From NCBI RefSeq assembly GCF_003991155.1, contig NZ_CP031295.1: a stretch of 64,000 nt of DNA, one strand, 5' to 3'. Origin of the DNA: Escherichia coli (GTDB lineage Bacteria; Pseudomonadota; Gammaproteobacteria; Enterobacterales; Enterobacteriaceae). The number at the start of each line of letters is the position of its first letter. The first letter of the stretch is position 1. Of this stretch, positions 3,001 to 9,000 are shown piece after piece. Made by a program: the position numbers.

Positions 3001-6000
3001 ATGCAATTGCCCTGTGGGCCTCATCCTGGAGCACCGGCAGTTCACGGATGCGATACATAAGACGTGGCTCTAAAGTCCGCCAGTCACCGGAGACATCGAT
3101 CAGATTCAGTTCAGGGTAATTCGTGACAGCTTTTCTCTCAGGCTGGGGGGCATCATCATCCTGGCCGTCATCCGTCACAACCCGGAAACAACCCTCAGCA
3201 TACCGTTCAAGCATGAATACCAACTCGGTGGCAATGTAATGCAGTTCCTTTTTCATTTTATCTTCTGACGCCTGTCTCTCACGCTTAAGCGTGAAATAAT
3301 GTGTCAGCCAGATGCCAGTGAGTGTTATACCCCCAGTAAGCAGGCCAGTGATAAGCCCGGTTGCCACGTTTCCCCAGATCCCCGCCCCTTGATTAATCAG
3401 CTGTACGGAAACCGGATGGGATGTCGCAGCAACTATACTCTCAGTTGCGGCCTGTATATCAGTCATTGATCATTTACCCCTTTATATTCCTGAGAAATCA
3501 CACCTTCTGTATGTATTCAGCGGTCGGCAGCCAGCTCATCAGCCAGCTTCACAAACCTTTTGTGCTCAGTCTGCAGGTAATGGCTGTAAATCCGGGCATC
3601 ACGTTCTGTCAGTCCGGATGGATTGCCGGTGAAGTAACGTTGCAGCACCGCAATACAGTGATTGTAGGTATCGAGATCATATTCCCAGTTTCCCAGCTCA
3701 CCGGCCGCATCCAGTTCCTGGCGAAACTGCTCGTATTTACGGAGCAGAATGCCAAGACCTAATTCTGTTGCAGCATAAAGATTATTTTCTCCTGGCGCGG
3801 AAATCGCATTACGGATTTTTTCAAAAGCATAACTGAAATCATTTCTCTCATTGAATGCAGTAAACATGTCCTTTCCTCAGTTGAATAGTTAGCCGTGCAA
3901 TTTTACCACACCTCAATCATCGTCAGATGAGTGCCACTCTGTCGCGACAGTGACTTTCACGAGAGTGATTTTCACATACTAAAATAATAAGCAGCCATAT
4001 AACAACGTAATTAAATTACCTGACGGCCGCTCTGGCCGGATCCGACTTTTATGTTATTCCACAGTTTCCGGAAGTGTACCACGCACACGAAATAACCACA
4101 GCGCCCTTTCAGGGTGGTGAGCGGCCGGTCACGGGGCAGGGGAGGGGCACAACATATATGGTCACTGACAGCTGGAAACACCGCTACATCTTGTGTTGTC
4201 GGGCCGCTGCGCGCCGGTGGGGTTCGCAGAGATCCGGGACTACCTTTTTTCGGATCTCAGAAGTGGAGAAGAGGAATTATTGCAGCATGGACACAAAAAA
4301 CGAGTAATTGTTGCGATGAGTGGACTATTGCACCATGAGCAAATATAAATGACTTTATGCGTCCTGCGGTTAAATATATTGTTCATGCCGTCCGGCTGAA
4401 CCCCGGGTCAGGGGATCAGCCGGGAAGGAGAACGTCACGGTTCTGTTTTCCGCGACAGGGTCTTTCTTTTTTTCTTCAGGTACATCACTTCGTCACATTT
4501 ACCGATCATCTCCGCCAGTGTCGTATAATGGTCTGCGTTATTGATCAGTTCGCCAAAGGAATAATTGATGTTGTAGGGCTTGCCCGAGGTGTCATTGTAA
4601 TGATCGAGACTGGCACTCAGCGCGTGCAGATAAGACTGAGTGTTACCGTTTCGCCGGATCAGGGCGGCAAACTCATCCCCGCCGAGGCGGCCTGCTATTT
4701 CACCCGGTTCAAGGTGCTGATGTAAAAAGCCGGCAAAGATCTTCAGCACCTCGTCACCTTCCGCGTGTCCCCAGAGATCGTTAACCGGTTTGAACCTGTC
4801 CAGATCGAAATAGATGAGGCTGAACGACGCATCCTGCCGGTTCATTGCGCGGAAGAGTTTTTCGCCGGCGCGGTAAAACCCGCGCCGGTTGGGAATGCCC
4901 GTCAGGCTGTCCGTCATGGCCATGCTGATGGCCTCGAATTCGTCCTCCACGATACAGGCCAGGTCCCGGAGGGACGCAATGTCCTCATCCGTGAAGGCGC
5001 GGGGAACGGTGTGGATCAGGCACAGCGTGCCGGCCACCGTGCCATCCGGCAGGCTCACCGGCTGGCCGGCGTAGAACCAGATGTGTGGCTCACCGGTAAC
5101 CAGGGGATTATCGTGAAATCGCGCATCGGCAGCCGCATCGTGAATGATAAAAGGCCCTTCCTGCAGAATGGCGTGCCCGCAGAACGAAATATCACGTGGA
5201 GTTTCGCGCACGCCGACGCCCTGGCAGGCGAGGAGCCACTGGCGCTCGCGATCCAGCAGGCTTATCAGGGCCACCGGGACCTGAAAGGCTTTGCGGGCCA
5301 GCCGCGTCAGGCGTTCAAAACGCTCATCGTCACGGGTATCAAGAAGGCTGGTAATATACAGGGACTTCAGCCTCTGTTCTTCATTCTCCGGTATACCGGG
5401 TGCCTGCATGTAATCTCCTGGTATGTACAAAGTATATATGCAGATGAAAAGGTGTTTGGATCTGACTGAGTGTAATTATAGTTCACGACTTATCTGCCAG
5501 CGGCTGAACTTCAGGTACAGGAATTCACGTTTATCACTCGTACTAGACTCTCCGGAGGACCAGGGGAATGACCGGGTCTGTTACGGTGAGGGAATCTGTA
5601 AACCTCAGGATTTTTGCCGGGAAAGTACGTATAACTGCTATCTTGATTAGTAAATGTTAAAATTTGTAGGTATCCACCCGTTAAACAAAATGATTAATAT
5701 TTAAAAATACTCGTTGAATACCCGTGCCGTAATAATGAAGTACATTAAAAACGTTATCCGGTCATGTGAAGCTGAGACCGTCTCTTCGTCATGTAAAATG
5801 CCGTACTTTCTTTGTCGTGAAGAATGACCGGGTTAAGTCCATAAGGTTGAGAGGAAGTCTGCAGATGTGATACGCTCAAGGCGAGATTTATCTCAGTGAG
5901 AACTCACGGCAACAAAAAGTTTTTGGACAACAAAACACAAAGTTGTTTTGGACTGTAGGAGTCCAAGAGACAATGACATTACATACAACGCCGTGTAACG

Positions 6001-9000
6001 GATTTTACATTATTACAAAGCCTGTGTTACAAGAGAGTTATGGACATGATTGAAAAAATATGTGAAGTAATTGATGGTGAATACGTCTGTGATATAGATA
6101 TTAGCGTTGAAGAATGGAAGATTTTATTAAGGGATAAAAAAGTTTTTGATGACAAAAGTATTGCAGCGTTAAAAAAATGGTTCATTGAGCCAGACCATTC
6201 CTGTACATGTTTCGATATCGGCAAGAAGTACGACCTGCACAGTATGAGTGCTAATGGTGTAATCAATGGGTTGGGTGGAAGAGTTCAGAAGCAGCTTGGC
6301 CGATTCGAGGTTAAAGGAGTCGGAAAGATTGCTTCCGGGACAAAATTCATTACAGTCATGAAAAGTAGAGAAATTAAAGGAAACCCAAAGCGAAATTTAT
6401 GGACTATCCGTGAATAACTTGTTCAGGCAATAAAAGAACTAGATTTTTTTAGTACGAACGAAAGCTCAAGCATTGATTTTTACTCAGATAATGATTTGAT
6501 CACTGCTCTAGAAGAAAGTAATCACTTTGACGTTACTCAGACATTTGAGTATAGCGAAAAAGCGAAACCTAAGAAAGCTGCAATAGAAGTCAAAAATGGA
6601 CTCTCATACCCAAGAAGTAAATCTGTTTCAAAAAATGCGCTTAACAAAGCTGATTATAAATGTGAAATTAATTGCGACCATCCAACGTTCAGAAGGCGAA
6701 ACTCTCCTCTAAATTACACAGAACCTCATCACATTGTCCCGATGTCAAAGCAAGACTATTTTGAGAATTCACTGGATGTGGAAGAGAATATCATATCACT
6801 ATGTTGCAACTGCCATAAACAAATTCATCTTGGCAAGGGGTTTGAAGATATGTTGAGGAAAATATATGCCGAGCGGAAAGATGTATTAAAAAAAGCGGGA
6901 ATCGAGATATTATTAGAGGATTTGATTCTTTTTTACAAGATGGAAGGTAATTAATCTTCGAGAAGATGCATGCTTATTTTTATTTTTTTAGCAATGAATG
7001 TGAAATACTGCCTGACTATCAATCCTGTCATGTGGTTCAGATTTATGGGGGAGGATTTTAATATTTTACCAGCATGGCATGTCGATCAATCGGTTAAGTA
7101 TAGCGCCAGGTAACCAGACGGATTTTCCCTCTCAGGCGGGAGTCGTTATCCATCGTCCAGTACCTGATTAAAAGTAGGAGTAATTACAAGAAAATTAAAT
7201 TGTATGACTATTATTTCCGTTCAGAAAAGAAAGTTACATTAAAAACCCGAAATTATTCGGGTTTTTAATTAGTTAAGTGCTATATATTTTCGTGTCCGGG
7301 GGTACCCTAAGAGGGTGCGCAAGACAACACTCCAGTGTTCATTATTTATGACTGTCAAGCCATTTATTCATCTGCTCAATTTCACCTTTTTGAGCTTTAA
7401 TGATGTCCTGCGCAAGCTTTCTCATTTCGGGATCTTTTCCGTATTTGAGCTCGGTCTCAGCCATTGCGATTGCCCCTTCATGGTGTGCGATCATACCTTT
7501 TGCAAAGGCCTTATCGGGATTGGATTCATTAACGGCGGCCATCATTTTTTCATGCATATTTTTCATGCCAGCCATATATTCCTGTGATGATGCCGATGAG
7601 TGCATATCTGACATTTTCATTTCCGAATGTTCAGCAGAAATGGCTGGCAGGGATAACATTAATATTACAAAAAGGGTGTTTTTGATTTTCATATAATAAT
7701 TCCTTTCAGACAGGTACCGGTTAAGTGTAGCTGAGTCAGACAAAAAAGCCCCCTGACGGGGGGCAAAAATGTAGCAACGTTGTTTCAGGAAAATCTATCA
7801 GGGAAAAGGTAACAGCACGGATACTACCGTCGCATTCAGCCTGCATTGATCATGCGGCGGTGCGCTTCGGCCATGGCCTGATGTGGGCCGGATTGCCCGT
7901 TATTCATGAATTCATGGGCAACCGCTGCTCTTTCATGCTCATTCATCGCCGCGTAAGACGTTGACGGGACGGTCGTGGATACCGTGTTATTTCCCATCAT
8001 CTTCTGATGACTTTCCACCATTTTCTGGTGCGCATCCGCCGAGCCGTTCGTCATGGTCTCATGAGCAATAATGGCCTGTTCATGCTGGTCCATACCGGTC
8101 ATACGAGGAGCAGTCCCCTGGATCCCGACAGGAGCCGCAGCAGACTGCATCTGGTGAGCAGGAGCCTGTGCATTGTTGACGCGATCATGGATATTCACGG
8201 TTTCAGTGGCCCAGGCCGATGAAATTAAACCAAAGCCCAGCAAAGATGCTAATACGATATTTTTCATGATAACTCTCCATTTCTGAATTAGTGATGTCCG
8301 GGGAAGTACAACCGGTGTTTTCAGTTCCATAACTGAAACAAGTTCGGCAGCGTTTATTTCTCCGGAAGAGGGCTGGATATTCATTTCCTGGCGTACTCTG
8401 ACGCCGGGTATTGATGAAGCAATCCAGCCTTCCTGATAAGTTGCACTAATTATATCGAATGGCTTCTGTTTGCTGCATGACAGGCTAATGACATCTTTGT
8501 CATTTACATCTTTATTTTCAGCATTGGGTTTCCGGGATCATTTTCTCCAGTCTGGGCACGGATAAGATAAAACGCGTGGAGCGTACGTCTGATTCCACCT
8601 GCACTCTTCCGTGATGTGCTTCCACGATTGACTTCACAATCGCAAGGCCGATGCCGCTGCCTTCTCCTTTTCGTTGTCTGGATGGATCCACCCGATAAAA
8701 ACGGTCAAACAGCCTTGATAAATGTTCTTCAGGGATCGGTTTCCCCGGATTTTCAATCACAAGGTCAAAAAAGCTCTCCTGCTCTCTTATTGAGACGGTG
8801 ATTGCCTGTCCCTCCGGGGTATAACGCAGGGCATTGGATAACAGATTATTGATCGCCCTTCTGAACATTTGTGGATCTCCCTCAACCAGGCAGGGCATCC
8901 CGTTAAATTTGAGCGTGATATTGCGTTCTTCGGCCCAGGCTTCGAAAAACTCGAAGACTTTCATGACTTCCGCTCTGAGGTCAAACATGACCCTGTCAGG

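Follow-up and report, generated by a model that had tools for sequence, protein, structure and literature searches.

Related modification-dependent nucleases

A modular sensor-effector pattern has been described for modification-dependent nucleases (PMC12191111, PMC11037411). In the wH-HNH enzymes of Helbrecht 2024, a winged helix is followed by an McrA-like HNH domain in stand-alone proteins of 224-283 aa; they recognize Dam-type G6mATC and have a toxic effect on Dam+ E. coli, and fusions of winged helices to McrB-like NTPases were also noted (PMC11037411). The locus analyzed here lies in a window of 64,000 nucleotides from the Escherichia coli contig NZ_CP031295.1, which carries an HNH endonuclease pseudogene on the plus strand at 6046-6954. 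The evidence taken jointly is best explained by a nonsense-killed allele of a solitary, type IV-like nuclease composed of a winged-helix-like reader and an McrA-type HNH domain, a reading given a probability of about 0.8.

The protein shares its outline architecture with the Helbrecht enzymes. Unlike them, its intact allele is stably carried by hundreds of plasmids of Dam+ Enterobacteriaceae, being present on 851 plasmids of Klebsiella, Escherichia, Enterobacter and others; expression aside, incompatibility with Dam+ hosts is thus putatively absent. Klebsiella, Escherichia and Enterobacter are Dam+ genera. Since Dam+ Dcm+ hosts maintain the intact gene, we infer that neither Dam nor Dcm methylation, in their normal contexts, can be its target. 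In the supplements of PMC11037411, neither WP_001372261, the accession of the intact protein, nor any entry from Klebsiella, Enterobacter or C. beijerinckii is listed. As for a possible homology to the methyl-adenine sensor winged helix of DpnI or HhiV4I, a reader-domain profile searched against PDB sequences yielded no restriction-enzyme chain up to an E value of 10, and the fold matches shown in the PDB structure search were all generic wHTH proteins, sequence-specific regulators.

EcoKMcrA (McrA/RglA, 6ghc) is also a solitary protein of ~280-300 aa, with N-terminal DNA targeting, a C-terminal HNH domain and no partner methyltransferase. Alignment of the two HNH halves (E 3e-6 for a single-sequence search, 3.5e-8 for a profile) extends through the HH...N...CxxCH core and the following helix. 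Beyond the HNH half the two proteins share no similarity, the alignments ending at query residue 169-187; the winged-helix-like N-terminal domain of the present protein comes from a different, McrB-associated family; and the second Cys of the first zinc pair of EcoKMcrA is not conserved, H212 being conserved instead. The protein does not behave as an EcoKMcrA ortholog, since 6ghc is absent from the N-domain fold matches listed and the N-domain profile has no PDB sequence match.

ScoMcrA from Streptomyces coelicolor (5zmm), a type IV enzyme dependent on phosphorothioate or 5mC, is the top Foldseek match (E 2.6e-4) and likewise combines a modular reader with an HNH domain. It is ~530 aa long, however, and the match (TM 0.26, 16% identity) covers the HNH part only. 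Its reader domains are an SBD and an SRA domain; with the reader domain alone as the query, ScoMcrA is absent among the listed PDB matches. The McrB-family GTPases of McrBC systems share the reader, which many McrB-like proteins carry at their N-terminus (71 of the best 150 representatives), but the protein described here has no AAA+ GTPase and no need of McrC, its nuclease being fused straight to the reader. The EVE-HNH and PUA-HNH enzymes such as VcaM4I (PMC7897488) are also stand-alone sensor-HNH fusions without a methyltransferase, yet the sensor here is wHTH-like rather than of the PUA-superfamily fold.

One reading frame interrupted by a nonsense codon

The earlier note on this DNA had described a gene split by one TAA, and this was borne out. 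In the window sequence, ORF 6496-6954 shares a single frame with ORF 6040-6417, or 6046-6417 as counted from the conserved start, and the TAA at 6415-6417 is the sole stop between them. The full frame comprises 302 codons and a stop, with TAA as codon 124. A joined protein of ~305 aa from 6040 had been proposed; a single protein is indeed indicated, but it is 302 aa long and begins at ATG 6046 (MIEKIC...), the PGAP start and also the start of nearly all homologs. The intact allele in NZ_CP024144 corresponds to the 302-aa RefSeq protein WP_001372261.1 and has GAA (Glu124) at this codon. In a base-by-base comparison, T6415 of the window in place of G is the only difference within the gene, and plasmids with TAA and GAA are 99.6-99.8% identical over 1650 bp. 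Glu124 is near-invariant in the family alignment, with Glu in at least 90% of homologs. The region 6046-6954 is one gene, turned into a pseudogene by a single G-to-T transversion, GAA to TAA. The TAA form is already known, having been flagged as a pseudogene by NCBI's pipeline: the same coordinates in NZ_CP080076 carry the PGAP/RefSeq label 'HNH endonuclease, internal stop'.

The stop lies where the final helix of the reader begins, 5' of the entire nuclease domain. Translation stops after residue 123, upstream of the HNH domain, and the product of the TAA allele is therefore a truncated 123-aa reader fragment without nuclease, for which a residual role is possible. As the earlier note had stated, the second ORF is preceded by no ATG or GTG: the first ATG, GTG or TTG past the stop is TTG 6496, at which no Shine-Dalgarno sequence was found, and the following in-frame ATG, at 6742, lies beyond the catalytic His-His. 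No plausible restart for the HNH half was found among the in-frame starts 3' of the stop, checked for Shine-Dalgarno sequences. These results bear on whether the locus could instead be a two-component system, with a stand-alone reader (6046-6417) and a separately translated HNH protein (6496-6954). Short reader-only proteins do occur elsewhere, for example the 130-aa P0069 beside GmrSD genes. Such an arrangement is nevertheless very improbable here, as TTG 6496 is poorly suited to initiation and the next start loses the catalytic His-His, the truncation cuts off a conserved last helix, and the split amounts to one point mutation on a 99.6%-identical background. Moreover, the more than 50 close homologs, from Enterobacteriaceae, Aeromonas, Clostridium and Neobacillus, are all fused single polypeptides of 290-307 aa, and not the consistently separate genes by which the note would have been refuted. 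P0069 was itself considered as another split gene and rejected, the ORF after it being unrelated.

Distribution of the two alleles

Among 951 PLSDB plasmids, a 62-mer with GAA was present in 851 and a 62-mer with TAA in 87, so that, together with NZ_CP024144, the homologs with a sense codon at 6415-6417 that the earlier note had proposed to seek are plentiful. The TAA 62-mer occurs in 63 complete E. coli genomes, and 61 have one mismatch to it. The first 60 TAA plasmids listed are all from Escherichia, Salmonella or Shigella, plus one from Enterobacter, and swine are the source of many of the TAA plasmids listed. Most sil plasmids retain the intact gene; these are mainly from Klebsiella and include pLVPK and pK2044. 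The TAA haplotype carries four linked upstream SNPs, at 5713, 5771, 5863 and 5908. An assembly or sequencing artefact of the window record would likewise produce a difference of one base, but the identical allele recurs in the work of many laboratories (87 PLSDB plasmids, 63 complete E. coli genomes) and is linked to four further SNPs, so that this explanation has a negligible probability. The nonsense allele is genuine and inherited, clonal in a sil (silver/copper resistance) plasmid lineage of Escherichia, Salmonella and Shigella, and represents a single evolutionary event. Two orphan methylase genes are present on one TAA plasmid, and none is annotated on one GAA plasmid; because the allele is a single event, this contrast is no more than anecdotal for the idea of a methyltransferase conflict.

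The earlier note had allowed that the gene might require readthrough. Programmed readthrough or suppression of the TAA at 6415 would yield a low, regulated amount of full-length enzyme and so limit nuclease toxicity, and the frame past the stop is open and unmutated, with the half 3' of it identical to the intact allele at every position. The stop is followed by C, and in E. coli TAAC is a comparatively weak context for termination. This absence of further decay is, however, equally explained by a recent allele, given the 99.6-99.8% identity noted above, and unrelated frameshifts and truncations in other alleles of the gene (alleles with 185 and 228 member sequences) point to simple loss. The stop is confined to one haplotype, with a Glu codon in 851 of the 951 plasmids and in all divergent homologs; it is not conserved and thus gives no recoding signal, leaving programmed readthrough unsupported. 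UAA is decoded by both release factors, and to our knowledge it is not a recoding codon in Enterobacteria. Such a bypass of the stop is accordingly regarded as highly improbable, though some low-level readthrough may occur. The verdict is that of an ordinary pseudogene of an uncharacterized but recognizable type IV-like restriction enzyme.

Domain structure of the protein

Residues 1-136 (6046-6453) form a putative DNA or modification reader domain, confidently modeled with a winged-helix-like fold. The reader had been expected to belong to the SRA, EVE or PUA-like families. This was not the case: Pfam EVE, SRA, YTH and ASCH models have no match in the protein, and the reader domain has no sequence match in Pfam, NCBIfam, PADLOC, PHROGs or PDB, matches to these falling in the HNH half only. 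At least 613 protein clusters contain the module. Of the best 150 representatives, 71 are the McrB-type GTPases mentioned above (NCBIfam McrB E 1e-33 to 1e-44, down to 7.5e-44, on the AAA+ part) and 22 have McrA-like HNH domains, and fusions to PD-T4-1-like effectors and to an EVE domain are also present. These combinations follow the modular sensor-effector pattern of modification-dependent nucleases.

The reader is followed by a variable linker (residues 137-169, 6454-6552) that is predicted to be disordered, with pLDDT below 50 at residues 137-149 and 157-168 and gappy, poorly conserved alignment columns. The remainder, residues 170-300 (6553-6945), is an McrA-like HNH (beta-beta-alpha-metal) nuclease domain without a translatable start of its own. 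The claim of a complete HNH zinc-finger core is upheld: Pfam HNH PF01844 matches residues 209-261 (E 2e-5), and H228, H229, N248, H257, H261, C206, H212, C253 and C256 are at least 90% conserved in the homolog alignment, so that the catalytic His, the Asn, the metal-binding His and the zinc ligands are present. The assignment as McrA-like and type IV-like gained support from 6ghc (E 3.5e-8), from the PADLOC mREase_IV model (5.5e-7 to the HNH half) and from the N-terminal module shared with McrB-family GTPases. The best Foldseek matches of the full model were ScoMcrA 5zmm and EcoKMcrA 6ghc, and by sequence and predicted structure the HNH domain is nearest to McrA/ScoMcrA and not to the homing or colicin HNH families. 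The similarity to PADLOC models, McrA and ScoMcrA is limited to the HNH half.

Locus, selection and origin

The gene itself has 35.9% GC and the region 5431-7237 has 37.7%; the window as a whole averages 50.9% and the GGDEF gene upstream reaches 56.7%, in agreement with the AT-rich islet noted earlier. The neighbors on the plasmid are this GGDEF gene and the convergent copM, the latter also low in GC (40%). The upstream intergenic region (5431-6045, plus strand) has 40.5% GC, carries the four SNPs linked to the TAA and shows no similarity to the matching Enterobacter region; a promoter scan found no more sites there than in shuffled sequences, and none was assigned. At its other end the islet does terminate in a bidirectional terminator-like element, a perfect 14-bp hairpin with an A-run and a T-run at 7238-7269, between the HNH gene and copM. 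Its minimum free energy is -17.6 kcal/mol (z -5.6), a stability that none of 200 shuffles reached. A simple terminator scan missed this hairpin and folding confirmed it; the 14-bp stem includes the A-run and T-run. The only Rfam match in 5300-7500, to the rimP leader and below threshold, was the hairpin itself. Homology to the Enterobacter sil locus picks up again at 7238. A chromosomal sil copy (H30) was uninformative for the natural right boundary of the islet, being an IS1 truncation.

Defence-like genes and sil genes flank the Enterobacter locus, whereas the Clostridium homolog is chromosomal, beside metG and small ORFs, without a sil context. No adjacent methyltransferase was found in the window-type plasmid, Enterobacter or Clostridium locus. 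In comparison with an Enterobacter allele that is 80% identical and has the same position beside sil, dN/dS is 0.077 overall, 0.033 in the reader half and 0.119 in the nuclease half; at ~0.08, the intact gene is under purifying selection. Identity to the Clostridium and Neobacillus proteins is 57-65%. A foreign origin fits this identity and the low GC, and with the nonsense codon it sustains the earlier suggestion of a horizontally acquired gene since inactivated.

Probable function of the intact enzyme

The protein has two features of a type IV enzyme, in that its two-domain model with a disordered linker joins a nuclease to a putative DNA-targeting sensor and the plasmid, Enterobacter and Clostridium loci contain no cognate methyltransferase. 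The reader would bind foreign-modified DNA and direct the metal-dependent HNH domain to cut nearby, acting without a partner methyltransferase. From homology and domain architecture, we infer that the intact enzyme would be modification-dependent. No experiment on or published characterization of this protein family was found in the literature, where WP_001372261 appears in no paper; searches for an HNH endonuclease with silE and pco gave only irrelevant word matches.

Judged from the model, the reader seems at least as similar to ordinary winged-helix transcription factors as to any known modification sensor, and could read sequence or DNA structure instead of a modified base. The intact protein might then be a real nuclease targeted by its winged helix to specific sequences or structures and serving plasmid or island maintenance, competition or recombination. 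This would accord with the sequence-specific wHTH regulators that are the reader's only structural relatives, with a position bordering the sil island that stays fixed between alleles diverged by 20%, and with a phage-defence phenotype not being documented. It is considered unlikely, though not negligible, in view of a reader module overwhelmingly attached to McrB-type GTPases, and also to PD-T4-1-like and EVE partners, which are hallmarks of type IV and anti-phage systems, of an HNH domain closest to McrA/ScoMcrA, and of a chromosomal Clostridium homolog outside any sil context. A type IV-like restriction enzyme is the preferred interpretation.

More tentatively, the 136-residue module may constitute a family of DNA-modification sensors not yet described, with a winged-helix core, a family-specific beta-hairpin and extra helices, and with a specificity apart from the known 5mC/5hmC (PUA, McrA, McrB) and Dam-6mA (DpnI-type wH) readers. 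If so, one undescribed sensor would be plugged into McrB GTPases, McrA-type HNH nucleases and PD-T4-1-like effectors, and the repeated breakage of the plasmid gene (TAA here, frameshifted or truncated alleles elsewhere) would reflect a clash with the methylation patterns of new hosts or co-resident plasmids.

In itself the pseudogene is of little importance; its TAA allele can conveniently serve to trace a lineage among E. coli and Salmonella sil plasmids, many of which come from swine. On some 850 sequenced plasmids the silver/copper resistance island is accompanied by the intact gene; two Klebsiella hypervirulence plasmids, pLVPK and pK2044, are among them, and the gene would accordingly be a widespread plasmid-borne barrier to modified phage or plasmid DNA. 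The reader domain, which has no Pfam model or solved structure, is common to many McrB-type systems, and knowing its recognition target would allow hundreds of type IV systems to be annotated together.

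A single nonsense mutation splits the HNH gene

The HNH gene (window 6046-6954, plus strand) was found to be split by a single nonsense mutation, carried by a minority plasmid lineage and already flagged by public annotation. A reading of positions 5400-7500 and the ORF listing both bore out the two same-frame ORFs described in an earlier note based on sequence alone. The first ends with TAA at 6415-6417 (125/123 codons), the frame beyond it is open for 78 bases with no shift, and a second ORF is listed from TTG 6496 (152 codons, ending at 6954). The start codon assigned by PGAP is ATG 6046, and the residues MIEKIC that it begins also open nearly all homologs; the repaired protein is therefore 302 amino acids long, and not about 305 as the note had estimated.

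An identical stretch in NZ_CP080076 is annotated in RefSeq as "HNH endonuclease; pseudogene; internal stop", and the counterpart in NZ_CP024144 as an intact HNH endonuclease of 302 amino acids (WP_001372261.1). Base-by-base comparison of the window with NZ_CP024144 showed only one difference within the gene, T versus G at position 6415, which gives TAA versus GAA (Glu124). This glutamate is invariant in a 20-sequence alignment of the N-terminal domain. A 62-base probe centred on codon 124 matched 950 plasmids in PLSDB, 87 exactly (the TAA allele) and 863 with one mismatch, and the same probe repaired to GAA had 851 exact matches, so that homologs with a sense codon at 6415-6417, for which the note had proposed a search, are abundant. 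Among the 851 are pLVPK (NC_005249) and pK2044 (NC_006625), both Klebsiella virulence plasmids. Of the 87 TAA plasmids, the first 60 listed were all from Escherichia, Salmonella or Shigella, apart from one from Enterobacter; many came from pigs or pork, and none came from Klebsiella. Among complete E. coli genomes the TAA probe was exact in 63 and one base off in 61. The TAA allele is also linked to four SNPs (5713, 5771, 5863 and 5908) clustered within 200 bp of the upstream spacer. From the allele counts and the linked SNPs, the stop is therefore a real mutation with one haplotype origin that has spread by descent. Sequencing error was rejected as an explanation, given the exact TAA probe in 87 PLSDB plasmids and 63 complete E. 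coli genomes.

Close homologs are each one polypeptide, 290-307 amino acids long, not the pairs of separate genes that the note had considered as the contrary outcome; they come from Klebsiella, Escherichia, Enterobacter and Aeromonas and, at 57-65% identity, from Clostridium and Neobacillus. An Enterobacter allele, 80% identical at the nucleotide level, holds the same position beside copM, silE and silS. Alignment with this locus was possible just for the coding region and, on the copM side, from the intergenic hairpin onward; the spacers flanking the HNH gene could not be aligned on either side. Compared with the Enterobacter allele, the N-terminal half has a dN/dS of 0.033, the C-terminal half 0.119 and the whole gene 0.077, at a dS of about 1.3. 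By this coding-sequence comparison the intact gene is under purifying selection.

Plasmid context

Over its first 27.6 kb the window runs collinear, at about 99% identity, with IncR-type plasmids of E. coli and Shigella such as p663Rt_IncR, on which the sil silver/copper efflux cluster is found. In order, the genes are those for a replication protein, an integrase and a GGDEF protein, then the HNH gene, copM, silE, silS, silR, silCFBA and silP. The low GC content noted earlier for this islet was evident in the HNH gene (35.9%) and the 5431-7237 stretch (37.7%), compared with 56.7% for the upstream GGDEF gene and 50.9% for the whole window. The terminator placed at its end corresponds to a perfect 14-bp hairpin with an A-run and a T-run (7238-7269; dG -17.6 kcal/mol, z -5.6), located between the HNH gene and the convergent copM. 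A candidate rimP leader at 7213-7291 was rejected (Rfam score 25 bits where the gathering score is 47; E 0.29), the match being this terminator hairpin. No pco genes follow silP (window 13241-27628 and 30513-63022). The sil cluster is followed by IS1, a plasmid-borne malT with a chromosomal-type rtcA fragment, and IS26. Judged by similarity to p663Rt_IncR, what remains of the window is a multiresistance region bounded by IS26, in which QacL, two aadA genes, cmlA1, dfrA12, a class 1 integron and TnAs3 are annotated. At the Enterobacter locus (contig L003, 961-7446; also L004 and L005) the GGDEF, integrase and replication genes upstream of the HNH gene are replaced by defence-like cargo, comprising a KAP-family NTPase, a CAP12-PCTIR TIR-domain protein, YuaX and an 893-amino-acid SMC_N/AAA_23 protein. 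The left edge of the sil island has the look of a variable slot for defence genes.

An McrA-like nuclease joined to a putative reader domain

Residues from about 170 to 300 make up an HNH nuclease domain, matched by Pfam PF01844 (E 2e-5, in the comparison with Pfam that the note had proposed) and PADLOC mREase_IV (E 5.5e-7). The only significant match among PDB sequences was E. coli McrA (6ghc), with E 3e-6 when the single sequence was the query and 3.5e-8 for the family profile. In the AlphaFold model (mean pLDDT 76) a disordered linker spans residues 137-168, and the best Foldseek matches were ScoMcrA (5zmm) and EcoKMcrA (6ghc). The catalytic and zinc-binding residues H228, H229, N248, H257, H261, C206, H212, C253 and C256 are conserved. 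Homology shows the intact protein to be an McrA-branch nuclease whose DNA-targeting domain is separate, and the earlier note was essentially right both in what it observed and in how it interpreted it. A 190-amino-acid protein from a 1092-bp metagenome contig (P0059) has C-terminal residues, about 100 in number, that are one residue off the HNH domain of the plasmid allele, joined to an unrelated N-terminal part; this suggests that the linker was a site of recombination or module swapping, or else a chimeric assembly.

Residues 1-136, hereafter the reader domain, matched nothing in Pfam, NCBIfam, PADLOC, PHROGs or PDB sequences. Modelled alone, and with confidence (pLDDT 91.6, pTM 0.87), the domain is predicted to be winged-helix-like and not of the SRA/EVE/PUA type guessed previously, and none of the matches listed for it bears the description of a restriction or modification-dependent enzyme. 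A profile search (E up to 1e-3) found at least 613 cluster representatives among 1.84 billion. The best 150 of these contained a McrB-type AAA+ GTPase in 71 cases and an McrA-like HNH domain in 22, and 57 were unclassified. NCBIfam McrB was matched by seven of 10 sampled proteins (E 1e-33 to 1e-44) and Pfam AAA_5 by one of these. Most unclassified proteins (37 of 57) are no longer than 220 amino acids; among the longer ones four match the PADLOC PD-T4-1 defence protein and one has an EVE domain. A stand-alone copy of 130 amino acids (contig L008, 4001-4393) is found immediately downstream of two genes of the GmrSD type (type IV restriction), and the 129-amino-acid ORF after it is unrelated to HNH. 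The N-terminal half is a putative mobile targeting module of defence systems. This partner pattern matches the combinatorial sensor-effector arrangement described for the sensor domains of modification-dependent restriction enzymes (PMC12191111; PMC11037411).

Consequences of the stop codon

Readthrough, which the note had left as an option, was unsupported: the TAA is not conserved among homologs, in which Glu124 is at least 90% conserved (36-sequence full-length alignment), so nothing suggests programmed recoding. UAA is not known to serve as a recoding codon in enterobacteria. No Shine-Dalgarno sequence was found at TTG 6496, the sole in-frame start candidate ahead of the nuclease core, and the next in-frame ATG (6742) is downstream of the catalytic His-His pair. 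The final helix of the reader domain (residues 123-131), which is highly conserved, is lost to the stop as well. For the TAA allele the economical interpretation is simple loss of function. Unrelated disruptions are present in other public alleles, as frameshifted or truncated products of 234, 227, 180 and 192 amino acids, of which two have 185 and 228 member sequences, and the HNH gene seems to have been lost repeatedly. Independent truncated, frameshifted or N-terminally replaced versions in other alleles are P0013, P0056, P0057, P0061 and P0010.

Two orphan DNA methyltransferase genes (contig L007, 37219-37902 and 43624-44187) and an antirestriction gene lie in the leading region of p663Rt_IncR, a plasmid with the TAA allele; p14EC029c, the one GAA-allele E. 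coli plasmid inspected, is without an annotated methyltransferase. The contrast is compatible with a methylation conflict, as a single-pair anecdote and not as evidence.

Proposed function of the intact protein

No methyltransferase gene adjoins the HNH gene at the plasmid, Enterobacter or Clostridium loci. The best-supported model is a solitary type IV enzyme, in which the reader domain would bind marked foreign DNA and the tethered HNH domain would cut near the bound site; we infer that activity depends on a DNA modification. Hosts of the GAA-allele plasmids are Dam+. Published enzymes of wH-HNH architecture recognise Dam-methylated GATC and show toxicity in Dam+ E. coli (PMC11037411). Unlike these, the intact allele is kept on hundreds of plasmids in Dam+ hosts, which argues, indirectly, that the intact protein cannot act as they do. 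Homology of the reader domain to the DpnI-type wH sensor was established neither by PDB sequence profile nor by the fold matches listed, nor from PMC11037411.

As a pseudogene the TAA allele is ordinary. The residual interest lies in the uncharacterised reader-domain family and in the wide, unnoticed spread of the intact gene alongside the sil island.
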